Notes: generated by a model not told the origin, from the letters alone. A stretch of 20,000 bases of DNA from Stramenopiles sp. TOSAG23-6 (GCA_900128565.1 LT635913.1:47196-67195); one strand, 5' to 3'. Shown: positions 3,506 to 20,000, numbered from the stretch's first letter. Translations and numbers: made by a program.

Positions 3506-5716
3506 ATGAAAAATGGAAAAGAAACTTCTGAAGCCTCTACATCTACAAAAATCAAAATGAAAAAGTTTCAAAGTAAATCAAATATTGTGTCCAGCGATGG
3601 GTACTTGACAGTTTCACCTTCAAATTCTTCTACTGGAAATTCGTCAGCTGATCATGTAGAATTTAAAGTGCAAGCACCTGAACTCATTCGTATAGTCCTC
3701 CAAGGCTTGTCGGAGTTAGGCTATTACAAAACTGCGGAAACTCTCTCTAACGAGTCAGGTGTAACAATTCACTCTGAACAAATGGCGCTATTTCGTAGAA
3801 GTATTTTAGACGGGGATTGGACTCTTTGTTTAGAATTGATACCTCATTTAAAATTTTCTCAAACTTCTCAGTCTTCTCAAACCTCACAAATTGAGTTGGC
3901 TCGTTTTTTTATATTAAGAGAAAAGTATCTTGAACTTTTAGAACAAAAGAAAACCACAGAAGCCATCAAATGCCTTCGAACAGAACTGTCTGAGAGTTCA
4001 TTACATAATTCCTCTAAACAAAATTCTGCTGTTCAGGACAACAATGCAGCAATTAGATTTGGTGACCAAAGTTGTTCTCAAATGTTTGATAGTTGTCAAT
4101 CATCAACTGTATTGAACAGCTCAAGATTAAAAACCCTATCCCCTTTGGTTTTGTGTAGTACTAAAAAGGATTTATTGCTCAAGGCCAAATGGGCAGGTAC
4201 AGAAGGCGGGTCTCGTATACATTTATTAAACAAATTCAATACTATATTGCAGCATTCAACCTTAGTACCAGAAAGTCGTCTTCGTACATTACTAGGTCAA
4301 TCATTACAAAATCAAATTGGAAAATCGTTATACCGTAGACCGAGGCATCAGCCATATTCCCTTTTGAATAATAACAAATGCATGCCACCTAAATTACCTA
4401 CACGGGCTGTGTGTGTTTTAGAGGAGCATAATAATGAAGTTTGGCATATAGAGTTTTCAAAAGATAGCAACAAAATGTGTTCATCATCGAAAGATGGTAC
4501 GACTATAATCTGGGATACAAGAGCTATTAAAAACGATCAATTTACTAAAGGATTTTTGCCTGTTCCTATACTTCATAAGCTAAAGCCTCACGAGACAAAA
4601 GATATACCAGTGATGTTTTCAACATGGAGCCCAGACGATTTACTGATTGTGACTTGTCATGGAGATGGAAGCGTCTATCTTTGGGATGCGCTATCAGGTG
4701 ATACTCGGTATAAATTAGTCGGTCATACATCTGCTGTAATATCAGCAGCTTGGCTTCCTGACGGGAAAAGTTTAGTCACAGGTGGAATTGATAAAAAAAT
4801 TATACTATGGGAAATAACGGAAAATATTCCTTCACCTCAAAATGATGTTACTATTAATATCATGAGTAATACACCTAATGGTACAACAAATGAAACAACA
4901 AATGAAACAACAAATGATACAACAAATGATACAACAAATGATACAACAAATGAAACAACAAATGAAACAACAAATGAAACAACAAATGGTACAACAAATG
5001 GTACAACAAATGAAACAACAAATGATACAACAAATGATACAACAAATGATACAACAAATGATACAACAAATGATACAACTGATGGTAATATTACAGATAC
5101 ATCACAGAGTTCAAGTTCATCATTTGATACTGAGTTAGCAGATGTTGGAGAGTTGGTTGAAGGGACAGAAAATATACCAAGTTCAAGCAACATAAGAATA
5201 ATTTCTCCAACATACTTGTGGTTAGGTGTTCAAGTGAATGACATTGTTTTAAATCATTCTGGGACTTCTGTGATAGTAGCAGGTTGCAATAATCAGGTGT
5301 ATATGTATAATTTAGTAAACCGCCAGAAAAAATCTGAAAGTTTTATAAAGGAAAGTGGGTCCGTCATGTCAATGAAATTGACTGATGATGGTCGTTATCT
5401 TTTGTTAGCTATTGCAAATAAAGATATACAAGTTTGGGATATACAAAAGCGCAAGTATGTACTAAACTTTAAGGGTCCTCGCTTAGGCCGGTATGTCATT
5501 CATTTTGCACTGGGTGGTGAAGGACAGTGCTTACTAGCATCTGGTAGTGAAGATTCTCAAATTTATTTATGGTATCGAATTACGGGTACTCCTCTTTCAG
5601 TGTTATCTGGACATGCAGCAACGGTGAATTGTGTGTCATGGGCAACAGTGGATTCAGGAAAATCACCTATATTAGCTAGTTGCAGTGATGATCATACCGT
5701 TCGCATTTGGCGATGA
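3506..5716 (+). CDS. WDR26: WDR26/GID7-like LisH-CTLH-WD40 subunit of the CTLH/GID E3 ligase
   Basis: LisH (ELIRIVLQGLSELGYYKTAETLSNESG), CTLH (FRRSILDGDW, ILREKYLELLE), VPESRLRTLL, WD40 repeats (HNNEVWHIEFS, ASGSEDSQIYLW, LASCSDDHTVRIW). First ATG is at 3506 but the frame is open from 3224. Confidence 0.88.
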   Translation: MKNGKETSEASTSTKIKMKKFQSKSNIVSSDGYLTVSPSNSSTGNSSADHVEFKVQAPELIRIVLQGLSELGYYKTAETLSNESGVTIHSEQMALFRRSILDGDWTLCLELIPHLKFSQTSQSSQTSQIELARFFILREKYLELLEQKKTTEAIKCLRTELSESSLHNSSKQNSAVQDNNAAIRFGDQSCSQMFDSCQSSTVLNSSRLKTLSPLVLCSTKKDLLLKAKWAGTEGGSRIHLLNKFNTILQHSTLVPESRLRTLLGQSLQNQIGKSLYRRPRHQPYSLLNNNKCMPPKLPTRAVCVLEEHNNEVWHIEFSKDSNKMCSSSKDGTTIIWDTRAIKNDQFTKGFLPVPILHKLKPHETKDIPVMFSTWSPDDLLIVTCHGDGSVYLWDALSGDTRYKLVGHTSAVISAAWLPDGKSLVTGGIDKKIILWEITENIPSPQNDVTINIMSNTPNGTTNETTNETTNDTTNDTTNDTTNETTNETTNETTNGTTNGTTNETTNDTTNDTTNDTTNDTTNDTTDGNITDTSQSSSSSFDTELADVGELVEGTENIPSSSNIRIISPTYLWLGVQVNDIVLNHSGTSVIVAGCNNQVYMYNLVNRQKKSESFIKESGSVMSMKLTDDGRYLLLAIANKDIQVWDIQKRKYVLNFKGPRLGRYVIHFALGGEGQCLLASGSEDSQIYLWYRITGTPLSVLSGHAATVNCVSWATVDSGKSPILASCSDDHTVRIWR
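4877..5080 (+). repeat. Coding 12-bp minisatellite AATGAW/AATGGT-ACAACA, 17 copies, encoding N[D/E/G]TT
   Basis: 17 units counted from the translation, inserted between WD40 repeats. Confidence 0.95.
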
Positions 5717-7883: not shown

Positions 7884-9950
7884 TTATAAATTAATAGTCG
7901 TCAACTCTGTGCCGTCATCGTCCATATCACACTGCGGTTCATCCATATTTCCATGAAGTCTGACATGAACATCATCAGTGTATAATATTTCCGAGTTTGG
8001 CATTTTATCCGAACTCTCTAAGGAATCACTTGGTCGGCCTAAAGGTACTAAATATGGAATGAGAAGTATTGGAAGTAATCTTGTTAAACTGCGGGTCAAA
8101 ACAAGCAACTCAATATTATGAAATTCAGGAGCACGAACACCTCCAAAGACTTCCAATAGCCCAACTCCAACATATCCTCCAATGACAGAACCAAAATTTG
8201 AAAGGCCCATTGTCATTGCAAAAAGTGTTGCCTCCATTTTTGGTGGGCATAATTTTGCTGCTAGAATAAAAACTGGCATTGTATTAAATCGACTTATTAA
8301 AGGGGATATAACTTCTTCGCCTAGCATGAAAGCTTTATCTGATATTCCAAGACTTTTGTTCCAACGTTGAACCCAAATAAGATCCATGTATTGTGAAAAA
8401 AAAATGTTTTAGTATAAAAAATCCATAGGTACGAAATTTCATACCAACAAGAAAAAACAATTAAATTCATTTTTCAAAACGTACATGAGATTGACAAATA
8501 CAAGTGCCAGTTGAGTCATTGCAAAGATTTTTCTGTATGGCCATGAACTAAAATATCTATTGTATAACGCCGTCCCAATGACAAAAAAAATATTTCCTAG
8601 AACGCCAAACCAGGAGTGAATAATGTGAAAAAATATTTTTTTTGTCAAGAAAAATGTTAGGTACAAAATTTTTATGGTAAAAAATGAATGAAAATTCAAT
8701 TTTGAAACCATACATAATTTAGGTGAAAAACAGGGACGTTCTCCATAGACCCCATTACAATTTTCTGGGGTTTCTTTTGACCAGTAGTAGATAACTTCTG
8801 AATATGGTTGCATTGCTCCTTGTAAGAAGATATAAATTGTTACTTGAGCTAATACAGGATTGATTTTAGATTCATAGTAATGTATAACGTAGCAAACAAC
8901 TACAGCAATGAGTATACTAAATATACATATTACTGAATTATCAGATACAATAGAAGCAAAACCACCCTTTTCTGAAGAACATATTTTGTATAGTTTGATA
9001 TTTGTTAGGTACAGAATTTGGTATAAAATTTAGGTAAAACATTCATGATGAAAACATACCATTGTCAAAGATATAGCACAAACAAATAAAGCCATTTTGA
9101 TCATCACGCCTTGTTTACCATTATTAATTGCATCTTTTAAAGGTTGAATATTTGAACATTTTCTATACGGAGGTTTGTCACGCTCTTCGGGTAGCCATCT
9201 TCGCCAAGCAGGAACCAGTACGGCTAGTGCTGGTATAACACATAAACCGAGAAGGACACGGCTACCAAACCATTCATAAAGAATTCCAGAAGAACAACCA
9301 GCAAAAATTTGACCAATTCCTAAAGACCCCCAGCATAACGTCTGCAAATCAGCGGCATATTTTGGGCGTTCACGACATCTTTTAGCGACAGATGCATCGA
9401 TCATTACATCAGGGGATGCGATGGAGTAATTAAACATAATCAATAATATTGTAACTATTGCAATGCCCAACCCAGGAGAAAAGGCAAATGATAGAGTTGA
9501 AAATACTCCTGAAAATCCAGCTATACCAATATATGGAGACAGGTGAAGTCCTGAAATTGGAAGTGTATCACTCAATACACCATACATAGATTTAAGTTGC
9601 CATGGAATGTTCCCCACTCCTGACACAACCTGCATTCTATCGGAAGATAGTCCAAGCCCTTTGTGCATTGTTGATTCCGTATCAGAGAGCAGATACCGCA
9701 TTGCGAAGAATCCCCAACCTTCACCAATTCCTTGGTTCACACCATACACAGCAACGACAGAAAGCACAAAATATAGACCGAATGTTCTCGTTAACCGGGA
9801 AAAATATTTGGCCAGCGTACAAGGAAAAAACATTACATAGTCCACGAATTCTGGATTAACAGGAAGTGTATGAAAGTCACGTATACTTGAATCCATACTT
9901 TGGTCTAAATCAAGGCTATCATCTGTCAATGGATCAAACTTTTGGTCCAT
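7884..9950 (-). CDS. BT1-family folate/biopterin transporter; inferred exons 9950-9060, 8966-8714, 8617-8485, 8385-7884
   Basis: PWQLKSMYGVLSDTLPI, ASPDVMIDA, LQTLCWG, GISDKAF, MPVFILAAKLCPPKMEATLFAMTMGLSNFG. The frame is continuous after removing 3 family introns. Confidence 0.88.
8386..8484 (-). mobile_element. Introner-like intron A, 99 nt, GT-AT
   Basis: ctcat|GTACGT...TTCACAATACAT|ggat restores NLMDLIWVQRW; no AG inside; CATG direct repeat at the junctions. Confidence 0.8.
8618..8713 (-). mobile_element. Introner-like intron B, 96 nt, GT-TC (boundary less certain)
   Basis: ttat|GTATGG...TTTTGTACCTAAC...TTCACATTATTC|actcc gives FSPKLYSWFG; in frame and stop-free. Confidence 0.65.
8967..9059 (-). 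mobile_element. Introner-like intron C, 93 nt, canonical GT-AG
   Basis: atg|GTATGT...CTGTACCTAAC...TTCAGAAAAG|ggt restores LTMGGFAS. Confidence 0.8.
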
Positions 9951-10224
9951 TGAGTGTGCTGTATTGGCAGAGTTGATATAATTATAACTTAGGCATTTGA
10001 ATGATATTAACAAGTCATAAAAAATAAAATTGACAGCATGCGCAAAAAAGTAATTATTCGTGTTTTTTTTTTCTGTTAGGACTTCGACTTGACTACTTCG
10101 GTCAAAGGTATTATATATTACCCAGCTAGGGTTATAGTGTCTCTCGAATTCTTGCTCTAAACACACTTCTCTTCACACACTTCTATACCTGTCGAAAAAA
10201 TATTTATCTTAATCTTTTTATATA

Positions 10225-11031
10225 ATGGGCAAACGTGACGAAAATTCTCTCACTAGTACGAAAGACTCGTCAAGCATGGAAGATTCTAATGGTCGTGCAT
10301 TGAAGAAACAAAAGATGAGCAAAAGCGATGCGCCGCCCATCAAGGTAAAGGTCGATGCTCCTACGGCTTCACCTGGAATAGTGTCTTCGACGGTAAATAC
10401 GGCAACCCCCCCAATAACGCCCTCTAAAGTTACAGATGAGAACAATGAAGACAAAAACAAAGTAAATACAAATATAGATTCAACCAAACCTTCAACTGTA
10501 TTATCCGAATCACAGTGTAAACTTGCGCAGTTCCAGGGTTGGTGGAAACTCGACGTTCAAGCGTCCGAAACTATGAAACCATACCTGGAAACGCTTGGTT
10601 TGAGCGCTACGGCTGTCAAAGCCGCATTAAAAACAGAAACAGAATTCCCATCATTTATTCAATTTAAAGTAACGCCGAAAGAAGTTACTATCAAGCGGAA
10701 GTCCAGACTAAGTAGGCCATCGGATGAAAAAGTAGGTATAAATTATAAGTTGGGTATGACAACCTCTTCAGAAACAAAATACGGACAAGTGATTTCAAAT
10801 GCTACAATTCTTAAAGGTGGTATTCTAAATGTATCTGAAACTAGAAAAGTAAATGGCGAAAAAATTAAATTAAGTAGTCAACGAAAGCTTTTGGAGACAA
10901 AAGGAAATACTTTTAACGTAATTGAACAAATAATTACACTTCATCATATCGGTAATAAAGTGACTGTTACTACAAAGAGAATTTGGCGTAGGCAAAGGAG
11001 AGACTCATCGAATATATTTGTCGCGAGTTAA
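10225..11031 (+). CDS. Calycin/FABP-like beta-barrel protein with low-complexity N-terminus
   Basis: FQGWWKLDVQASETMKPYLETLGL resembles the FABP N-terminal GxW motif; beta-strand-rich, ending TKRIWRR. Confidence 0.55.
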   Translation: MGKRDENSLTSTKDSSSMEDSNGRALKKQKMSKSDAPPIKVKVDAPTASPGIVSSTVNTATPPITPSKVTDENNEDKNKVNTNIDSTKPSTVLSESQCKLAQFQGWWKLDVQASETMKPYLETLGLSATAVKAALKTETEFPSFIQFKVTPKEVTIKRKSRLSRPSDEKVGINYKLGMTTSSETKYGQVISNATILKGGILNVSETRKVNGEKIKLSSQRKLLETKGNTFNVIEQIITLHHIGNKVTVTTKRIWRRQRRDSSNIFVAS

Positions 11032-11158
11032 AATGTATCAATAGTTAGTATGTGGAGAAATTCCTTAAATATTTATTTAGTACTTTTATATAATTTACTA
11101 CTAAAATATAAATGAAAAAACATTTTTTTTTTACTTTTCATAGTTTTCAAAAGTTGTG

Positions 11159-12607
11159 TCATTTCATATCCGTTAGTATTCTATTTATATAATTCATCAT
11201 TTTCCGAAGACTTCTGCGACTGGATTTTTTTCGCGGTTCAAGGTTATCTTCCAACTCATTTTTGATGAATTTTAGTTTTTTATTTAACCAATCTGTAGAC
11301 GCACCACGCCATTCCGAATGAGAAGAACAGTATAACAATAAACCTGAGTTTTTGTTATTTTTATAATTTTTCATGGTAGAGACAGTAGACGTTGACGCAG
11401 CTGCATTCAAACAACCATTACAAAGTAAAACTAATGACCGACATAACTCACAACGACCTGTGTGTCTATCATAAGTTTCATTGGGAAACGCACAATATTC
11501 ACATTTTCCAATTATAGTGGGTTTCTTCTGGATCTGTTGATGCCTTTTTCTCTTTTTTGTGGTATCAGATGAAATATTATCTACACAATCGTTTGATACT
11601 GGACGTGCAATACCACGCCCATCAAATGTGAAATTACTGCCGCGGAAAAGACCATGTTGCCATATTTCTTTTTCTTCGACACTTTCATCTTTTTCGTTGC
11701 ATTCATGTTGACAATTTTCTATTTTTTTTTGATTTTTTGTTTTTTTCTCACAGATTTTTTTATCCGTACCATTACCTTTTACACGATTACATGCGAATGA
11801 TTCTAAATATCGATGAATTCCACCCTTAAGCTGAAACACATCTTCTACGCCGTGTCTTTTCATAAGAGCAGAGGCTGTCTCACAACGGATGCCACCTGTA
11901 CAATACATTGCTACTCTTTTATTCTTCAAGTTTAATTTAGAAGCATTTTCATCTAACCATTGAGGAAATGCAGCAAAATTTCGCGTGTTTGGTAAAATTA
12001 CTTCTGCGCCTTTTGCCTTTGCGGTGTCCCCAACAGAAAAGTTACCTATACGCCATTCGTATGGATTTCTACAATCTATTACACATAATGGTTTTTTACT
12101 TGAATTTGTGCCAAAATTCGTATCTAATGGTTGATGAAGATTTGTTTCATTAGAAAATTTGAAATCTCCTGTATCTAATAGAGAATGCCACTCTTGAGGG
12201 GACAAATGAATACCGGCAGTGTTACTTTTCAAATCAATAGGGGTTTGCATTCCGAGAGAGCATATTTCTTTGACAACTCGACATCGTAACTTTTTACCCT
12301 CAAAATGCACTGAAGCATCAGGTCCATCACTTTCACTGAGTTTCCAATCAATATTAGTTGATTCAAATAAGGACATATCTTCTGTTTGTCTCATGTACTC
12401 ATATATATTCGCTGAAGTTCCACCAACTGTACCATTTATACCCCGACGACTAATCCGAATACGCCCAGCTAAAGATAGTTTTGCACACAAAGCTGTCTGA
12501 GCTGAAGCAACTGCGGCAGGATCATTCACTTCCGTGTATAAATAATATAAACAAACTAGTCCATTTTTAATAGATTCATTTGTAATGTTCGAACAAGAAC
12601 CTGTCAT
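11159..12607 (-). CDS. TSTD2: TSTD2/TrhO(YceA)-like rhodanese-domain protein
   Basis: LYYLY, LAGRIRISRRGINGTVGG, HLSPQEW, IDCRNPYE, MYCTGGIRCE, VFQLKGGIHRYLE, C-terminal Cys cluster. Confidence 0.88.
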   Translation of the reverse strand: MTGSCSNITNESIKNGLVCLYYLYTEVNDPAAVASAQTALCAKLSLAGRIRISRRGINGTVGGTSANIYEYMRQTEDMSLFESTNIDWKLSESDGPDASVHFEGKKLRCRVVKEICSLGMQTPIDLKSNTAGIHLSPQEWHSLLDTGDFKFSNETNLHQPLDTNFGTNSSKKPLCVIDCRNPYEWRIGNFSVGDTAKAKGAEVILPNTRNFAAFPQWLDENASKLNLKNKRVAMYCTGGIRCETASALMKRHGVEDVFQLKGGIHRYLESFACNRVKGNGTDKKICEKKTKNQKKIENCQHECNEKDESVEEKEIWQHGLFRGSNFTFDGRGIARPVSNDCVDNISSDTTKKRKRHQQIQKKPTIIGKCEYCAFPNETYDRHTGRCELCRSLVLLCNGCLNAAASTSTVSTMKNYKNNKNSGLLLYCSSHSEWRGASTDWLNKKLKFIKNELEDNLEPRKKSSRRSLRKMMNYINRILTDMK

Positions 12608-12969
12608 TACTAAAACTAATACGTAATAATTTAATAAAGTCCAAAGCTGCTTGCGTGTGAAAAATCTTCTTGATTGACTTGTCGTGCTGAATTCTTCTTC
12701 AGATGGCCTTCAGATGATTTGATTTTGATTTATTTCGTGTGTGTCAATAAAACGGTTAAATAACGGCTGGACAGTAGTATATATTATTGGCTACAGGGTA
12801 CCCCTACACTACTGCTGTAGTACACGTAGGCACCGCATTACTTCTACTACTGATACAAGAACTATTACAAAACGCACATTAAATTTACAATATATCTCTA
12901 GCTAAAACGCCCATATAGCATTAGATTGAGATTATTTTGCAGAAACTTTACGTTTGATATTTTACATAA

Positions 12970-13524
12970 ATGTCAAAGTTTGGGTCACACACGAAAAACG
13001 CATTTCCTTTAGATACACCGTCTGTATTCTATGTCGTTGGTGCTACATCACACGATCCTCTACATCCTCCGGAATATGCCATGACAATGATACCAAATAA
13101 TATAGGTACAAAGTCATCAGTATCAAAACAGAATACTATGAAAAAACAATCTCAAACAAGTGGGAAATTCTGGTCAACTACTGGTGGCTTTCCACAGGAA
13201 ATTATCTTAGAGACTGAGGAGTTATGCAAAGTGCACTCATTGAAACTTGCCACAACAGGTGCTGCTTACTTAACTATACGGTTATATCCTGAATCTCATA
13301 ATTGTAATGAGGTAGCGATGAGTGTTGTCACTCTTGAGAAATCAGAGCCCTTCAATGTCGGATTCCCTCGTCTACAACGTAAAATAGTTCACTTTTCAGA
13401 CCAACCACCTTGCCGTAGAATTAAAATAGTAATAGAAAAAGTATACAATCAATTTGCGACATTGAGTGATGTACACGTAAATAGTTCACCAATTGAAAGT
13501 ATAGAAGAAACAGGAGTAAAATAA
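12970..13524 (+). CDS. IFT25: Intraflagellar transport protein 25 (HSPB11)-like
   Basis: ATSHDPLHPPE, FWSTTGGFPQEIIL, IKIVIEKVYNQFATLSDV. Confidence 0.75.
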   Translation: MSKFGSHTKNAFPLDTPSVFYVVGATSHDPLHPPEYAMTMIPNNIGTKSSVSKQNTMKKQSQTSGKFWSTTGGFPQEIILETEELCKVHSLKLATTGAAYLTIRLYPESHNCNEVAMSVVTLEKSEPFNVGFPRLQRKIVHFSDQPPCRRIKIVIEKVYNQFATLSDVHVNSSPIESIEETGVK

Positions 13525-13678
13525 TAAAAGGAACTATCTTTTTTAATCATATTCTACTTTTTCACTTGTAATAGCCCTAAATTCACAATAAAAACACTTA
13601 TTCAGTAAAATAGCACAGTTTTTCCGATGCTTGAAGTGTTTCGTATTACTACCACACACGCTTGTTACTCCGTTGTAC

Positions 13679-16600
13679 TTACCAAGTTGCTTCACTTGGG
13701 TATTTTCTGTTATTCGTCACTATATTTTGCCTCGCGGATTCCATGATGTTAAGCTGTTGTTTTTCCAGAGTTATCTTGCGAATCCGAGCAGCTGCTGTAC
13801 TGCCATCCCTATTTTGTTTCATTCCGCATATAGAACAACCTTTACTAGGTAAAATATGGGAAGGATTAATAAAGGTACATGTATTTTGGAAAAATATTTC
13901 AAAAACAAAAAACTTGTTAGGTACAAAATTTCGTACGAAAAATAAATTCTAAAAAAAAATAAAACATACATGTGTTACATTTCCATGGTGCATTTTGTTT
14001 TTCTGTATTATCACTATGCCAAACACTTGTTGCGCTTTTCTTCTTCGGTATACTTTTCCATGATTTTATGGAGATGTTGGAAAGATTTGCATTATTTTCA
14101 TCATTTAGATGACTTTGATATTGAAAATTCGAGGTTTGAAAATGTTCACTACTTCTGATATAATTTTCCATCATAGACGATTTTTCATTAGCTTGTATTG
14201 TAGAGGGATGACGACTATTATTAGAATTGAACGTATTCATGCCAGATGATTCGAAATTATTACTTGTTTTTTTTTGGATCGAATGACGCGGGAAACTGCA
14301 CAATTCACATTTTGTTGCATCACGATTAAAATTCTCATATGTACACATTTTACAAACCCAATCGGAGGAGGTAGAAGAAAAGGAAACCATGGAGTTACAT
14401 CTCCCATCAATTATATCTAATTCTGAATCATCATCGCGTGTATACGCTGCTTGTACTTGCTGTAATTGTTCTTCTGCGGCCGCCGCTAATGCTTTCAATT
14501 TTCTTGTTTCATCGTCAGCTTTCTTTGCGGCTATGCGATTTTCATATTCAATGCGTTCTTGTTCAATACGACGTTCTTGTTCAATACGACGTTCTTGTTC
14601 AATACGACGTTCTTCTTCAATGCGACGTTCTTCTTCAATACGACGTTCTTCTTCAATACGACGTTCNAGTTCAAGACGCTCTTGTTCAATACGTTGTTCA
14701 ATACGTTGTTGTTCAAGACGTTTCTGTTCAATATTCTGAGATAACACAAAGTCCAAAGTCTCGTTTGCAACATCTGCACATTCGCGACAAGCTGCATTAG
14801 CACAAATAACAGCAGTATAAGCAGCAGATGCCGCGTTGACACAAAAGGTCTCATTATCAAGAGAATTTGTATTATCAAACTCATTAGCAGCATTGATCAT
14901 TTGCAGAGTTCCATTTTTAAATTGGTAAGATTTTGAAGGAGTAATCATCAAAGAATTATTGGCATCATTTACTGCAGCATATTGATCATCATGAAAAGTA
15001 TTGATTACTTCATTCTGTTTAAATATATTTGTATCATCTTTCAATTCTTGTTTCGATCCTTCCAGTGAAACTGTAGCTTTATCTTGTGGTTGTCTTGTAA
15101 TAATATTTGATTCAACGGCTGTTGATTTCCATACATTTTTACTATATGTAGCAGCCTTCGGCAAAGTAGTTGCTTTCTTTCTCCATGAATCTATTTCTGA
15201 TCGTCCTACGGTTTGTTCTATAGGGTTTCTTGGAAAGTATGTATTGTGAAAAAATATTTCAAAAAAAAATGTTAGGTATAAAATTTCGTACCAAAAAAAA
15301 ACTAGATTTGAAATTCATGATGGAAATGTACATAGCGGTTTAGAAATTCTTGCAGTTGTACTAGAATGTTTCTCTCGTTGGCTAGGACGTTTGGAAGATA
15401 TAGGTGGATAATTTACATTGTTGACTCCATTCGTGTATTTCGTGTATTTTTTTTTTGTTGTTGATGTTGTACTGATTGAAGTTGTTGACGATGAGGCAGA
15501 GTTTATATCGTTCACTTTCGCTCGAGGGACCAAATTTGATTGAGATACAGTATTAGAAGTTGCTGATGTCACAGGTACATCTGGATTCCTTTGAAGAATT
15601 TCACACACCATTTCAATAGCACGAATGCATGTATTGTGAAAAATATTTTTTTTTAGTTACAAAAATCGTTAGGTACAAAATTTGGTACGAAAACAAAAAT
15701 CAGGTAGAAAAGGGATGATGGAAATGTACATGCATTAGATGATGGTCCTTTGACAACAAGTTCATTAAGACCTTTGTACATTGGTTTTGATGACTCTTGT
15801 ACAGCTAGAGAAGTACCTGCATTGTAAAAAAAATAGAAATTAGAAATTCGTTAGGTACAAAATTTTCTAGTAAAAAAAATTAAATCTAAAATTCATAATT
15901 AAAGAGTACCAGTCTCTCGCATAATACGTTTGATGTTGCAACCTGAGGTACCTATTACAGTACCACGCTCTCTTGCAGTAAGTGAATGAAATGGTATGTA
16001 GGAAGCAAACCTTTGCAAAAATTCTGTGGCTTTTGTATGAGCGGCTTGAACTGCCGTGTCTGTACCCGTTATTGTAGCGATGAAAGTTTTCCGGTCAATT
16101 GAATAAGTTGCACCTGTTTCATCTTGAATTCGTTGTATTGTCGCACCTCCAGGACCAATGAATTTAAGCATTTTTTCAAGTGAGCCAAATTCAAACGTTT
16201 TCTGTGAAGATGACATTGGGCGGGGTTTCTTTTGAGATTGTGAGTTTCGTTTGACTGGAGCAACAACAGTTTTTAATGGTACCTTACGAGCTCGTGTGTA
16301 TGAAGGAAGGACTCCACTCTTCCCCCAGGCACTCCGCACTATTCTAGGCTTAGGATGAGATTGATTTGACAAGCCACCATCATCTATATTTGATGTTGTG
16401 ATGGATTTGACTGAATCGATGTTAGATCTACAATAAGGACAACTAGCTGCCTGTTTCTTTGCTAGAAAGGTCTGACGCCAGCTAGATAAACACCCATCGC
16501 AGAATTGATGACGGCACGGTCCTATTTCCACATCAACCAGATTAACCGTACAAACAATACATATGCCTTCAGAATCACTCTCCATACAACTGTTAATTTT

Positions 16601-16738
16601 ATCATCATCCAGATATGGCTTTATTGCAGAAGAATTGAACTGAGGTGGTAAGTGATTATTGTCAGATATGCCTTCAACTTCAAGATTCATAGATGTGAAC
16701 TTTCGTCTGAAAGACAAAGGCTCAGAAAAAGTGCTCAT
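13679..16738 (-). CDS. RING finger + 2 KH + coiled-coil + 2 RanBP2-type zinc finger protein; inferred exons 16738-15910, 15816-15730, 15628-15332, 15238-13970, 13878-13679
   Basis: C3HC4 RING (CIVC..PCRHQFCDGC..CPYCR); KH1 (FIGPGGATIQRIQDETGA); KH2 (VIGTSGCNIKRIMRETG..LVVKGP..CIRAIEMVCEIL) completed across 2 introns; zinc fingers WVCKMCTYEN..CELC and WKCNTCTFIN..CSIC. Confidence 0.85.
13879..13969 (-). mobile_element. Introner-like intron D, 91 nt, GT-AT
   Basis: acat|GTATGT...TCGTACGAAATTTTGTACCTAAC...CAAAATACAT|gtacc restores WKCNTCTFIN; 7-bp direct repeat ACATGTA. Confidence 0.87.
14545..14730 (-). repeat. Coding 18-bp repeat encoding (E[Q/E]ERRI)n charged helix
   Basis: Repeated ttcaatacgacgttcttg/c units; translation RRIEEERRIEQE...; contains one N. 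Confidence 0.9.
15239..15331 (-). mobile_element. Introner-like intron E, 93 nt, GT-AT
   Basis: ctat|GTACAT...TATACCTAAC...TTCACAATACAT|acttt; contains an in-frame TGA and removal joins two same-frame ORFs. Confidence 0.78.
15629..15729 (-). mobile_element. Introner-like intron F, 101 nt, GT-AT
   Basis: gcat|GTACAT...TTTTGTACCTAAC...TTCACAATACAT|gcatt restores the KH helix NACIRAIEMV. Confidence 0.85.
15817..15909 (-). mobile_element. Introner-like intron G, 93 nt, canonical GT-AG
   Basis: actg|GTACTC...TTTTGTACCTAAC...TTTACAATGCAG|gtact restores RETGTSLAV. Confidence 0.88.
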
Positions 16739-17027
16739 GATCTTTTGAATACGCTAAGGTAATGTTGTATGTTTTCTTTGTGATGGAAATAAATCAATTT
16801 AATGAAATATTTGTGACTTTTTAATCTTTGAGAATAGTCGATGATCCCGTCGCAAATGCACACTATTCGTATTGGCCACCATTCGTTGAAAATGTCATAC
16901 ATACACTTTGAAGTCAAAAAATCCAATTTAGAACAAACACGAAATATTTCACAAAATCAGATAATTTTCAAAATTGTTTATTTTGTAATACGTTTGTTTC
17001 TATCAAGAGAAGTCGCAAATGAATAAT

Positions 17028-18923
17028 TTATTCCTTCATCGCCCGAGGAGATGTAGTGATTACGCTTAATTCAACATAAGATTTTGGCGCATTTCCTTCA
17101 GTCATAGTTTTATCAAAATGCATATTTCTTGGAGATTTTGCACTGCTTGATGACACATGTATTGTGAAAAANATATTTTTTTTTNGNTTNAAAAANTNCG
17201 TNAGGTACAAAATTTAGTATGAAAAACAATGTAGTAAAAGATTCAATTTAAAAAAACGTACAAGATTTGTCTTTGTATTTTCTGCTCTCCAAAAGAACTT
17301 TGGTGGAGTTGCACCATGATCTTCAATATGGAAAATTTCATATTGGGTAAGTAAAATTGCTATAATCCCAAGAAGTGTTGCAACAGCTAAAGTTATAAAA
17401 ATGATACTCCAGCCCCAATCACCTTGAAGAATTGGACCCACAAACATTTTGAGGAATATTGCAGAGACAAGCATAGAAATAAAATCCAAAAAACAACTCA
17501 CCAAGCCCGTTTTCCGACCACCAAATTGTACAGCAAACATTCCAGGCACTAAATAATACGACACGGAAATTCCAGCGGAGCAAACGAATATGAGAACAGT
17601 TTTCAGTATAACCAAATCTAATTTTTCTGGATCTGAAATTCCAGGAGCGGAGAGAAACGCTAGCGCAAGTAAAGCGAGTATTGAAATTACTGAAAGCCCA
17701 GCACACATTCTCATTTGGTTTCCACGAGTTAAACGACCATGTACTGTAAAAAACTATTTAAAAAATAAAATTGTTAGGTACAAAATTTCGTACGAAAAAT
17801 AAATAAATTTGAAATTCATGATGAAACCGTACATACACACGACCAAATATAGCAACACCAATAAATAAACCTGCTTGAAAAAACATACCCAGACTGGCCG
17901 CTTCGCCATCCGTGAGTAAAGCACTGTGAAAAATATTCCAAGTTGAAAATTGGTTAGGTACAAAATTTTCAATGAAAAAAAATCTGAAGTGAATGATAAA
18001 AACGAACAGGTTCGTGCCTGTATCGAAAAATAGAGAGGTACTAATTGACCCATTCTTTTTGTTAGGGTCAATAAACACATTCCAGATGTTGCTATAAGAA
18101 ATCGCCCATCTAGAAGAATAGTCATTGCAATCATAAATTCTTCAAAGATTGTCGTTTTCGAAGTGGTTGATGCCGTAGTATCGAGATTTTGTTCAGTTTT
18201 TTGTTTTTCTATCGAAGTTTTATCTGAACTTTTCACAGCTGATGATGTATTTTCATTCAAAGTATTCGATTTCTCCGTATTACCTGATTCTATATTAACT
18301 ACCACATTTGTGTCGTTTGAATCATCCTTTTTTTCTGAGGGTTTGTCATTAAGAGTAATGAACCCAACTATTGCGTTACACACTGTTATAGCAGCCGCAA
18401 TCTGGAGACAAACGCGCCAGTTAAAAGACTCCTGCAAATTACCGTAAAACACTTTAGAAAACATATCACCAGCACGACTTGACATAGAAAGAGACCAGAA
18501 AGCATCCGGAAGTTCTGCAGCAGTAAACCAACCACGAATGATTACTGCGCAAGCTGGCCATACAGGGCTTCCAAAAATTTCAAGAATCGTTGCTGACAAG
18601 ACAATATCATTCAATGAATTAGCAATCGATAACATAAATAAAACTATGGTCATCGTACATAAACCAATTGTTACACTACGAGCTCCACCCGCATAATCAA
18701 TAAAGAAACCGCTTGTTATTTTACCAAATGCCGAGCCGAGGGTTTGTGCAGCTAAAATCGTCGAACATCGCGCTTTATCAAAACCAATTTCTTTGGACAT
18801 TGCTGCATACAGAGGTGGTGGTGCATTTAAGCCCACAATAAACATAGAGTATACACCAAATAGTAAGATAGATATCCATGTTGATGTTTTCACACTTTTG
18901 TTATCTTTTTGCGAGTCCGACAT
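17028..18923 (-). CDS. Major facilitator superfamily transporter; inferred exons 18923-18008, 17918-17833, 17738-17262, 17156-17028
   Basis: GKITSGFFIDYAG (motif A-like), WPACAVIIRGWF, SRAGD, two hydrophobic halves with a central hydrophilic loop, YYLVPGMFAVQFGG. Confidence 0.85.
17157..17261 (-). mobile_element. Introner-like intron H, 105 nt, GT-AT
   Basis: ctt|GTACGT...TTTTGTACCTNAC...TTCACAATACAT|gtg joins in frame to the terminal exon; several Ns inside. Confidence 0.72.
17739..17832 (-). mobile_element. Introner-like intron I, 94 nt, GT-AT (alternative in-frame TAG 15 nt upstream)
   Basis: tat|GTACGG...TCGTACGAAATTTTGTACCTAAC...TTTACAGTACAT|ggt gives FGRVYGRLTR. Confidence 0.75.
17919..18007 (-). 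mobile_element. Introner-like intron J, 89 nt, GT-TT (boundary less certain)
   Basis: acct|GTTCGT...TTTTGTACCTAAC...TTCACAGTGCTT|tactc is needed to enter the LTDGEAASLG helix frame. Confidence 0.62.
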
Positions 18924-19232
18924 TGCAAATAAAACGATAACTAATAATGATTATAAAAGTTGACGTGTTCGTTGTATGACACGTTTGTATTGAAAGATAG
19001 TATTTTACTTTTTTGACATTTTATTTTTAACTTTTGACATTTTTATTTGGAAAAACTTATTACGTCGGGAGTATTTGGGAATTGGGGTACTACTATTTCG
19101 GGGATTTTAATCATTACAAAATATCAGATTTGAAATTTCTCTTTCTCCACGAAACATCAAAATGTGCAAAAATTACTGCCTGGAAAAGACCATGTTGCTG
19201 GCACCATAATAGCATTTGCAAAGTCGAGCTCA

Positions 19233-19946
19233 ATGTATGAAGCTACAACTTTTTCATGTATTTTATTGCTTCCTTGTTTGATTTTGGCTGCAAATATTCC
19301 ATCAAATTGGGAGAGTGATACTGAGGAATCTTTCACGTTACCGCTTGGTGGGCCAAATAAAAATGCAAAATTTGTGACTGTAGATCGCAGAAAGAATCTT
19401 TCGCCGGAAGAGTTTTACGAACAGTATGCAAAAAAAGGCATTCCTGTGGTTGTAACAGATGTTATGGAGTACTTTCCTGATGAATGGAAGAACCGTGTGC
19501 GAACAACTTTTGAAAGTATTACTATAAATGAGTTACGTAAAATTAGTCCTGACACATCTTGGGGCATAAAAGGCTCAATCGACGTTTTTGTAGTTATTGC
19601 ACGCAATATTATGATAATACGTGTTTTTATAGTATCATTATTTTTTCATTTGTAAAAAAATTGATATATTGTTTAAATTATATGGGAGATTACTACCTGA
19701 CCTTAATTTGCCTGAAAAACCTTATTTCAGTAAGTTTGACTCAGTAGATGAGTCTGCAGATATTTTTAGCCAACAACCTGGCCTGGTGTTTTGGGCACAG
19801 GAAGGGATTCCATTCGGTGGGTATGCACATATTGATGATTCATGCAATTCATCATTTTCAATGCAATTTATAGGTAACAAAAAATGGTATTTGTGGCCAC
19901 CAAATTGGCCACCAAATATAGAAAACAAAAAAGATGGAAACACGGT
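19233..19946 (+). CDS. JmjC/cupin-like dioxygenase with probable signal peptide (3' truncated)
   Basis: LSPEEFYEQYAKKGIPVVVTD, then in another frame AHIDD..SMQFIGNKKWYLWPP. The frames could be joined by a GT-AG intron at 19584-19632. Confidence 0.72.
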
Positions 19947-20000
19947 GTACGTTTTCATTATGAATTTCAAATTTATTTTTTTTTTCGTACGAAATTTTGT
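19947..20000 (+). mobile_element. Introner-like intron K (5' part, cut by window end)
   Basis: GTACGTTTTCATTATGAATTTCAAATTTATTTT..TCGTACGAAATTTTGT, closely matching the start of intron I, on the + strand in a + strand gene. Confidence 0.82.

Follow-up and report, generated by a model that had tools for sequence, protein, structure and literature searches.

Introners are, to our knowledge, the only fast route by which a genome can gain thousands of new introns, and they pose a standing question: how does a transposon obtain two working splice sites wherever it has been inserted? The stretch of 20,000 nucleotides from Stramenopiles sp. TOSAG23-6 analysed here, which we refer to as the window, bears on this question, as it holds a single family of short, mutually similar introns, most of which do not end in AG. 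Ten copies of the element are complete (89-105 nt) and one is cut by the window end; pairwise identities among the copies range from 48 to 80%. Three host genes on the minus strand carry copies A to J and one plus-strand gene carries copy K, i.e. in four genes on both strands all 11 copies are oriented sense to the host gene. The host genes and the copies are the following.

7884..9950, minus strand: host of A, B and C; BT1-family (folate/biopterin-type) transporter, 592 aa when spliced; Pfam PF03092
8386..8484, minus strand: copy A; 99 nt, GT...AT, junction repeat CATG; boundaries from frame and gap-free alignment with eight homologues
8618..8713, minus strand: copy B; 96 nt, GT...TC in the GT register, no junction repeat; the only copy whose last base does not mirror the last base of the upstream exon
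8967..9059, minus strand: copy C; 93 nt, GT...AG, repeat GG; the second AG is used, the CAG 5 nt upstream being out of frame
13679..16738 (3' end approximate), minus strand: host of D, E, F and G; about 887 aa when spliced; Pfam PF00013 and PF13920
13879..13969, minus strand: copy D; 91 nt, GT...AT, repeat ACATGTA; boundaries from frame and a rebuilt Cys codon
15239..15331, minus strand: copy E; 93 nt, GT...AT, repeat AT; boundaries from frame
15629..15729, minus strand: copy F; 101 nt, GT...AT, repeat CATG; splicing yields the 12-nt palindrome AATGCATGCATT
15817..15909, minus strand: copy G; 93 nt, GT...AG, repeat GGTACT; boundaries from frame and a rebuilt Gly codon
17028..18923, minus strand: host of H, I and J; MFS transporter, 535 aa when spliced; Pfam PF07690; homologue P0036
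17157..17261, minus strand: copy H; 105 nt, GT...AT, repeat TGT; boundaries from frame only; seven N inside, ends free of N
17739..17832, minus strand: copy I; 94 nt, GT...AT, repeat ATG; gap-free against P0036
17919..18007, minus strand: copy J; 89 nt, GT...TT, repeat T; a CACAG 5 nt before the cut is unused; gap-free against P0036
19947..20000, plus strand: copy K; 5' half only (window end); the upstream exon ends in GGT

The protein encoded by the host of copies D to G combines a RING finger, two KH domains, ERRIE repeats and two zinc fingers, which we take to be of the RanBP2 type from their Cys spacing. A protein search at near lengths with the third exon of the MFS gene gave no match, and for the gene at 19164 there was no protein match at longer lengths, no usable structure and no Pfam domain. 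The candidate intron at 19590 in that gene may be read as 43 nt with GT-AG ends or as 94 nt with GT-AT ends.

As in introners, alike introns occupy unrelated positions in four genes of different families, and the similarity stops at or near the borders, the 12-nt flanks being unrelated except for 1-4 junction bases. Every complete copy starts with GT (10/10), as part of a GTAYG 5' splice site. A branch-like motif, TACCTAAC (CTAAC), lies 33-44 nt before the 3' end, and the 3' part of the element contains a T-rich tract followed by YACA. Judged by their sequences, the 5' site and the branch motif look like ordinary U2-type signals. The 3' ends are AT in six copies, AG in two, TT in one and TC in one, so that eight of the ten are non-AG. 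Irrespective of the terminal dinucleotide, the cut in all ten copies is placed 10 nt downstream of the YACA start; an AG located 5 nt upstream of the cut is left unused in copies C, I and J (copy I ignores two internal AGs, whose last bases lie 15 and 5 nt ahead of the cut), and the downstream exon begins with a purine, G or A, in nine of ten. The element termini read GTAC...RTAC, and GTAC...GTAC in copy I. As originally described, TGTA...TACA can be read at the ends of six copies (A, D, E, F, H and I), an inverted repeat of only 4-5 bp that is shorter than the minimum of 6 nt applied to terminal inverted repeats in PMC9860276. A Pfam search detected no transposase domain in the window, an Rfam search of the window gave no match, and a scan of viral contigs (28 loci), metagenome contigs (18) and genome contigs (6) with the core motif returned chance matches only, without the element ends.

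Whether the elements are removed from the transcript, and at which positions, can be read from the host genes. The boundaries of the original prediction restore the frame in all ten copies, turning the three hosts into single open frames of 535-887 codons that are colinear with homologues, and seven of the ten junctions are confirmed by homologue alignment or by internal domain repeats. The homologue alignment is gap-free at 5/5 testable junctions (eight homologues for the BT1 gene, P0036 for the MFS gene). Splicing of copy D rebuilds the TGT codon for a conserved Cys in the second zinc finger, and splicing of copy G rebuilds the codon for the conserved Gly of an ETG motif in the second KH domain. 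Read-through would run into a stop in eight of ten copies and shift the frame in J, while copy B, a multiple of three, stays open. Taken together, frames, homologue colinearity and read-through stops indicate that removal is required. It is very improbable that the copies are no introns at all but insertions that are translated, that arose during assembly or that sit in dead genes, as might be argued from the open copy B and from RNA contigs that contain unspliced copies from other loci. Also in line with that reading, no spliced joint was among those listed from three RNA runs for the region of copies A to G, a listing dominated by cross-matches between copies. An assembly artefact is countered by an independent metagenome contig that holds A, B and C without gaps and with five base differences in 1,563 bases. 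One poly(A) RNA contig matches from exactly 15332, the 5' border of copy E, and gives a weak hint of a joint; the match is preceded by 19 unmatched letters that could be adapter. In one seawater DNA run, the summed contig depth reaches up to 35,000 over the copies versus 4-20 over most exon bins, which indicates that the family is highly repeated there.

Other placements of the cuts were considered and rejected. When C and J are read as GT...AG introns up to the first AG (88 and 84 nt, respectively), they are out of frame. A cut right after YACA, giving GT...CA in nine of ten, is the only other register that is in frame in all copies, and it leaves a private insertion of two residues at each of the five junctions tested against homologues. 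An AT...AC reading, with both cuts 2 nt further left, is open to only the five copies in which AT is duplicated; in copy C it would replace by Lys a Met/Leu position that is conserved in 8/8 homologues. In copy B the same reading would restore a Phe conserved in 8/8 homologues, which makes B ambiguous: both of its ends may be shifted leftwards by 1 or 2 nt with the length unchanged, since the 96 nt are set by the 16-residue CFSP..GT spacing common to eight homologues. The candidate peptides at this junction are KLYS, KLHS and KFHS. U12-type introns are characterised by RTATCCTT at the 5' site and by TCCTTAAC as the branch site, about 10-20 nt from the 3' end. The copies do not conform to this type, as they begin with GTAYG and carry CTAAC 33-44 nt from the 3' end.

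With the boundaries in place, the junctions can be compared. It had been noticed that the last intron base equals the last base of the upstream exon in nine of the ten copies, and this holds (T/T in A, D, E, F, H, I and J; G/G in C and G), with copy B (T/C) as the exception. Likewise, AT is duplicated in five of ten (A, D, E, F and I), and the longer junction repeats are present as claimed: CATG in A and F, ACATGTA in D, ATG in I and GGTACT in G. Overall the repeats measure 0-7 nt, with a mean of 3.2 (n=10). The chance level was obtained from 200,000 permutations that re-paired 5' junctions with 3' junctions, the sample being ten copies from a single window. Position -1 matches in 9/10 copies against a permuted mean of 6.0 (P=0.022) and position -3 in 8/10 against 5.2 (P=0.033); the two positions together give 17/20 (P=0.004). 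Position -2, which lies within the proposed AT duplication, matches in 5/10 (P=0.67) and is not locus-specific (C, G and H have T in the exon and A in the intron), and position +1 matches in 7/10 without a locus-specific part. Relative to the base composition of exons, T is overrepresented as the last base of the upstream exon (9/11 copies, P=7e-4) and G as the first base of the downstream exon (7/10, P=8e-4).

Our preferred explanation, to which we give a little better than even credence, is that the family consists of introners in the form of a MITE-like element that supplies the 5' splice site and the branch motif itself and obtains the 3' splice site through duplication of its target. A short non-autonomous DNA element of this kind would insert into coding sequence at a short palindromic site, Y/AT/R, thereby duplicating the central bases, and would leave the transcript as an intron comprising the element plus the downstream copy of the duplication. 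From such a composition it follows that the last intron bases, mostly CAT, repeat the end of the upstream exon, that the original codons are restored, and that most 3' splice sites read AT rather than AG. Removal of the element with one copy of the repeat indeed restores every frame. Integration would occur at the DNA level by a staggered cut, and a spliceosome accepting YAT would then take out the element.

The junctions could also be explained without any duplication, if the element itself ended in CAT and were inserted, or tolerated, only after YAT and before G, for instance by reverse splicing into transcripts. The identical CAT end in six of ten copies could indeed also arise if an invariant element end coincided with a preference for certain targets; the frequent T at the end of the upstream exon and the missing locus-specific match at position -2 suit this view, and matches shared across all introns cannot separate duplication from insertion preference (PMC9860276). 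Nevertheless, we consider it unlikely. Where the intron departs from CAT, the exon departs alongside it, namely in C (A.G in both), in G (C.G in both) and in B (T in both at -3), which is the locus-specific component detected by the permutations. Moreover, without a duplication a GT...AT cut would leave or remove bases and so disrupt the frame, a consequence avoided only if a circularly permuted form of the same sequence was inserted. Palindromic sites are a further point, as they are more readily expected from a symmetric DNA enzyme than from RNA-level insertion. The palindromic spliced sites that had been pointed out (CATG, ACATGT, TATA and AATGCATGCATT) are all present. A palindrome with an arm of at least two pairs about the AT centre occurs at five of ten spliced sites, compared with 5.8% of 5,992 coding positions (P=1.3e-4). 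Its centre is constant, between -2 and -1, as expected from a symmetric staggered cut.

The original prediction that the acceptor may derive from duplicated target DNA is borne out in part. It is the best-supported reading on account of the locus-specific matches at -1 and -3, the palindromes and the frames; position -2 does not conform, and six copies share the same CAT. Neither an empty allele nor a paralogous empty site was found, so that we infer the length of the duplication, and even its existence, from the ten copies. A related remark, that TG...CA ends typify several DDE integrase families, describes a resemblance only: all such integrases that we know of leave a flanking duplication, and in the TG...CA register none is left here.

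A DNA-level insertion might also have proceeded without the staggered cut of a transposase, either via microhomology or through a circular copy that recombines at sites resembling its joined ends, GTAC-AT-GTAC. Joined in this way the element ends form a 10-bp palindrome. Repeat length is variable (0-7 nt), and the repeats of D and G extend into the GTAC start of the element. In addition, contigs of one DNA run appear to join the 3' end of a copy to the 5' end of a copy via AT or ATAT; with sides of less than 30 letters that are flagged as unreliable, these head-to-tail joints are candidates. The constant palindrome centre, on the other hand, fits a fixed cut, and the longer junction repeats may reflect a target preference added to a short duplication. 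Such an origin strikes us as quite improbable.

Alternatively, the 3' cut could be set at the RNA level, through pairing between the intron ends or through a constant distance from an internal motif, and the mirror base would then be a by-product. The constant 10-nt spacing from YACA, the AGs skipped in C, I and J and the purine at the exon start in nine of ten would agree with this, and a spacer of fixed length resembles the rule described for Euglena (PMC12501133). Folding of five copies gave a terminal helix in the minimum-energy structure of each; z-scores lay between -2.4 and -2.9 for three and were -0.3 and -0.7 for the other two. The outer terminal pairs form in 5-7 of 9 copies. Covariation is absent, however: RNAalifold returned no consensus pair over nine copies (H was omitted because of its N), and the terminal helix pairs in 66.7% of cells versus 63.8% after shuffling, a value reached by 120 of 500 shuffles. 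Copies B, C, G and J lack terminal pairing, yet they keep the cut position and their frames are restored. Pairing further predicts that exon position -1 is complementary to intron position -2; copies C, G and J violate this. The suggestion that end pairing guides the choice of the 3' site thus found no support, and the ordinary U2-type look of 5' site and branch motif also counts against a cut rule at the RNA level, which we regard as rather improbable as the full explanation. A combination with the duplication is conceivable, though we propose it only tentatively: the second splicing step may not read AG but cut like a ruler, 5 nt after the CAR of TTTTYACAR, so that the intron ends within duplicated exon bases. 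Such machinery would unite canonical 5' recognition with a Euglena-like, position-defined 3' cleavage for introns with GTAYG, CTAAC and a T tract.

How does this family relate to known systems? The primary paper on the introners of Micromonas pusilla and Chrysochromulina sp. is reportedly that of Huff et al. 2016. In these introners, which are short, MITE-like and non-autonomous like the element described here, the 5' site is carried along and the 3' site is taken from the duplicated target, and mRNA length is unchanged after splicing (PMC9860276, PMC11282704). Whereas they end in AG, eight of the ten copies in the window are non-AG, nearby AGs are skipped and the inverted termini comprise 4-5 bp. 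The introns of Fritillaria borealis are likewise transposon-derived, with inverted and duplicated ends, and repeat exonic bases as a non-AG acceptor, exonic TAC preceding introns that end in AC or AT according to a review (PMC11282704). They start with AG and belong to an animal, in contrast to the GTAYG start, the yeast-like branch motif and the compact, AT-rich genome of a marine protist found here. The principle of drawing an acceptor from a duplication is therefore already published for Micromonas, Chrysochromulina and Fritillaria. The introner elements of Amoebophrya share repeated introns, inverted end repeats and direct repeats of 3-5 nt that span the exon/intron borders and blur the cut (PMC7789003); they have inverted repeats of 8-20 nt, no constant terminal dinucleotides and no detectable U1, unlike the present copies with GT in 10/10 and a minimal repeat.

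The nonconventional and intermediate introns of euglenids likewise have non-AG ends, duplication-like border repeats, a purine as the first base of the downstream exon and a cut at a constant distance from an internal motif; for the nonconventional introns of Euglena, PMC12501133 gives the code N3-CDG...CH'G-N5-6/R. The mutually complementary CDG and CH'G elements, at +4 to +6 and at about -8 to -6, and pairing covariation are absent from the copies, which in turn possess a polypyrimidine tract and a branch motif that set them apart from euglenid introns. Among DNA transposons, ISL2EU (PHIS, PIF/Harbinger-like) produces two-base AT duplications at the palindromic target A/AT/T, cut on both sides of AT (PMC4482050). 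The sites in the window deviate from this target: the left flank is mostly C or T (C or T before AT in 6/6 copies whose upstream exon ends in AT), and the right flank mostly G or A. AT stands at both junctions in five of ten copies, and the other five differ mostly at its first base. We found no description of a GT...AT introner family in the literature searched, although the supplementary tables of PMC9860276 and PMC12130899 might list one.

With respect to the question of how a transposon gains two splice sites, the family would probably provide one answer, since it appears to combine a canonical donor and branch site with an acceptor made of duplicated target, mostly AT, while adjacent AGs are ignored. 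If confirmed, this would mean that acceptor recognition in a free-living marine protist is relaxed enough to let a GT...AT introner spread, and it would bridge the canonical algal introners and the strongly non-canonical introns known from Fritillaria, Amoebophrya and euglenids. Annotation is affected as well, since any gene finder restricted to AG acceptors will get all of these host genes wrong. Should the ruler reading prove true, a transposon could become an intron at any target, and an AG would be unnecessary.

A search of the window for the core motif retrieved ten complete copies of one intron-like element (A–J) and an eleventh (K) that is truncated at the window end. All eleven are in sense orientation, ten in three minus-strand genes and the eleventh in a plus-strand gene. 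With random and independent orientations, such uniformity would arise about once in 2,000 cases, a bias that suggests removal from the RNA. The copies share 48–80% identity with one another and have a G+C content of 22%, compared with 35% for the window. Three blocks are conserved: GTAYG followed by TTTYCATCATGAATTT at the 5′ end, TTTTCGTACGAAATTTTGTACCTAAC in the centre, and ATATTTTTCACAATACAT at the 3′ end. GTAC-like words occur four times per element (both ends, centre, and branch motif), and copies D, I, and K share the perfect 12-nt palindrome TTTCGTACGAAA in the centre (13926–13941, 17783–17798, and 19982–19997). Contig depths in one seawater DNA run sum to as much as 35,000 over the copies versus 4–20 over most exon bins, which indicates that the family is highly repeated in that water, contig-summed depths being unsuitable for finer comparisons than copies versus exons. 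Core motif scans of viral, metagenome, and genome contig collections for further copies gave chance matches only.

The 20 kb are eukaryotic and hold about a dozen tightly packed genes on alternating strands, with products comprising an aldehyde dehydrogenase, a BTB protein, a WDR26-like WD40 protein, casein kinase II beta, a CDP-alcohol phosphatidyltransferase, a BT1-family transporter, a rhodanese/UPF0176 protein, a RING-KH protein, and an MFS transporter. The complete copies crowd three genes within 7884–18923 (3, 4, and 3 copies), and none is found in the nine remaining genes that fall fully or partially within the window before 19164. Near-identical DNA is contained in seawater metagenomes and in small DNA runs of one organism. 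Three further features of the region were recorded:

4869–5079, plus strand: 12-nt tandem repeat (17.6 units) in the WD40/LisH gene, encoding a NETT/NDTT-type run between WD repeats
12624–12822: intergenic stretch between the rhodanese gene and the next, with several small insertions and one 8-nt deletion in the seawater DNA run relative to the window, unlike the coding regions, which show single-base differences only
14554–14733, minus strand: 18-nt tandem repeat in the RING-KH gene, encoding ERRIEE/ERRIEQ repeats, with one N at 14667

Cuts at the nearest candidate sites (GT...AT or GT...AG) were rejected, as they break the reading frame in B, C, and J. One common 3′ cut, 10 nt past the start of the YACA block, puts all ten copies in frame and coincides with the boundaries of the original prediction.

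Complete copies (all on the minus strand): host gene, intron length, last two bases
A: BT1-family transporter, 99 nt, AT
B: BT1-family transporter, 96 nt, TC
C: BT1-family transporter, 93 nt, AG
D: RING-KH gene, 91 nt, AT
E: RING-KH gene, 93 nt, AT
F: RING-KH gene, 101 nt, AT
G: RING-KH gene, 93 nt, AG
H: MFS transporter, 105 nt, AT
I: MFS transporter, 94 nt, AT
J: MFS transporter, 89 nt, TT

Read through unspliced, eight of the ten copies introduce a stop and J a frameshift; B alone is a multiple of three and open. An independent metagenome contig holds A, B, and C gap-free, so the frames are not assembly errors. If retained, copy B (8618–8713, minus strand; 96 nt, no in-frame stop) would add 32 residues and leave the transporter untruncated, and P0005, a 124-aa database protein called on genomic DNA, corresponds to this read-through frame. 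Three cut registers of equal length are possible for B.

An alternative register that cuts right behind YACA, 6 nt earlier (GT...CA in nine of ten), likewise keeps every copy in frame, because the two registers lie two codons apart. Frames alone thus leave the choice undecided, and homology decides it. The alignments compared the spliced BT1 protein to eight homologues and the spliced MFS protein to a single one. In the predicted register, no gap arises at junction A, B, C, I, or J; the register directly after YACA was rejected since it creates an organism-private two-residue insertion at all five. In the RING-KH gene, splicing of D restores a Cys codon at C-x2-C spacing in a second zinc finger parallel to the first, and splicing of G restores the Gly of ETG in a second KH domain parallel to the first. 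Accordingly, conservation fixes seven of the ten junctions; E, F, and H are set by the frames only. The introns so delimited start with GT in all ten copies. C, I, and J each contain an unused CAG that ends precisely 5 nt ahead of the cut, and I contains a second unused AG. Since the CTAAC motif precedes the cut by anything from 33 to 44 nt, the cut is not placed at a fixed distance from it; the distance from YACA is fixed. A purine opens the downstream exon in nine copies.

The original prediction had observed that the intron end repeats the end of the upstream exon, and re-reading the ten copies confirmed this in every particular. A locus-specific match was distinguished from two fixed consensus ends by comparing each copy's own pair of 5′ and 3′ junctions with randomly paired ends, the logic for calling target-site duplications of introners (transposon-derived introns) in passages of PMC9860276. 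Over 200,000 permutations of the pairing among the ten copies, position −1 gave 9 matches against a permuted mean of 6.0 (P = 0.022) and position −3 gave 8 against 5.2 (P = 0.033; both positions jointly, P = 0.004). Position −2 gave no signal (5 against 5.4). Although G occupies +1 in seven of ten downstream exons, this has no locus-specific part, as the first intron base is always G and permuting pairs cannot change the count. The signal comes from the non-consensus copies, which are few:

C: A.G at both exon and intron end
G: C.G at both ends
B: T at −3 at both ends
J: C.T at both ends, with a different middle base

At position −2, copies C, G, and H carry T in the exon and A in the intron, unlike what a duplicated base would show. 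This mismatch could stem from selection that favours A as the penultimate base, from a duplication that is shorter or split, or from the lack of any duplication. The junction repeats vary from 0 to 7 nt, which would be compatible with integration through microhomology or from a circular copy. Many short contigs of the seawater DNA run, together with two from an RNA run, appear to join the 5′ end of one copy to the 3′ end of another (e.g. 13970–13973 to 15238–15242), running through AT, ATAT, or a few more bases; all sides of these joints are shorter than 30 letters and flagged unreliable. They would mean head-to-tail adjacency, i.e. tandem copies, insertion into the duplication of an individual copy, or circles.

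It had also been proposed that pairing of the intron ends guides the choice of the 3′ site. All five copies folded singly had paired ends; three folded more stably than shuffled sequences (z −2.4 to −2.9), and the other two did not (z −0.3 and −0.7). This pairing results from the palindromic consensus. RNAalifold on the nine copies without N yielded zero consensus pairs. In the named nine-pair helix, 66.7% of cells pair versus 63.8% in shuffled sequences, and 120 of 500 shuffles reach the observed value. Pairing is lost in B, C, G, and J, yet the cut position is unchanged. Furthermore, if the ends paired, exon −1 should complement intron −2, which is not so in C, G, and J; in all three, exon −1 equals intron −1. 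Guidance by end pairing is not supported, and a direct repeat accounts for the junction data better than a helix.

Five of the ten spliced sites form a palindrome of at least two pairs, centred between exon −2 and −1, the middle of AT; across these coding sequences, 5.8% of 5,992 positions do so (binomial P = 1.3 × 10−4). A staggered cut made by a dimeric DNA-cutting enzyme results in just such symmetry, the duplicated bases being in the middle. According to passages of PMC4482050, ISL2EU transposons duplicate AT at A/AT/T. Both systems are AT-centred, whereas the flanks are Y and R here and A and T in the published case; we regard the ISL2EU connection as a lead and claim no membership.

Shifting both cuts leftwards by one base gives six copies the ends TGTA...TACA, which had been likened to those of DDE integrases. 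TG...CA-type integrases leave a flanking duplication. As the flanks share nothing in this register (e.g. ...CTCA / TGGA... in A), we regard the likeness as no more than a resemblance and take the termini to be GTAC...RTAC, flanked by AT.

We propose that a non-autonomous DNA element would supply the donor site, the branch motif, and the T tract. Insertion at Y/AT/R would duplicate the central bases, and removal of the element plus the downstream duplicate from the transcript would restore the codons. Because the downstream duplicate would be part of the intron, the acceptor would be made of target bases, mostly YAT. For such a target-derived acceptor, which the original prediction had considered, the locus-specific match at −1 and −3 speaks in favour; against it stand the missing match at −2 and the fact that no empty site lacking the element was found. 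On balance, we lean slightly towards target duplication as the origin of the intron ends, and hold the rest of the mechanism with greater confidence. No spliced RNA was seen in three RNA runs, the joints among those listed being cross-matches between copies. One poly(A) contig matches from exactly the donor border of E; the 19 letters outside the match could be adapter, as in a neighbouring record.

The principle of an acceptor arising from a duplication is already published. Passages of PMC9860276 describe some introners, as in Chrysochromulina, with a 5′ site of their own and a 3′ site supplied by the duplication, and passages of PMC11282704 describe a duplication-supplied AG in Micromonas and an exonic TAC repeated as intron AC or AT end in Fritillaria borealis. 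In Amoebophrya, direct repeats of 3–5 nt overlap the intron borders, as stated in part of PMC7789003. What distinguishes the present family is the combination of an ordinary GTAYG donor and CTAAC branch motif with an acceptor that is non-AG in eight of ten copies and ignores AGs a few bases away. Literature searches revealed no described GT...AT introner family; the supplementary family lists of two large introner surveys might include this organism.

The plus-strand gene with copy K contains a further interruption from 19590, with two in-frame readings:

19590–19632, plus strand: 43-nt GT...AG reading
19590–19683, plus strand: 94-nt GT...AT reading, preceded by T and followed by G, as in the element family

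This interruption has no convincing alignment with the element family. If the 94-nt reading is true, non-AG acceptors extend beyond the element family.
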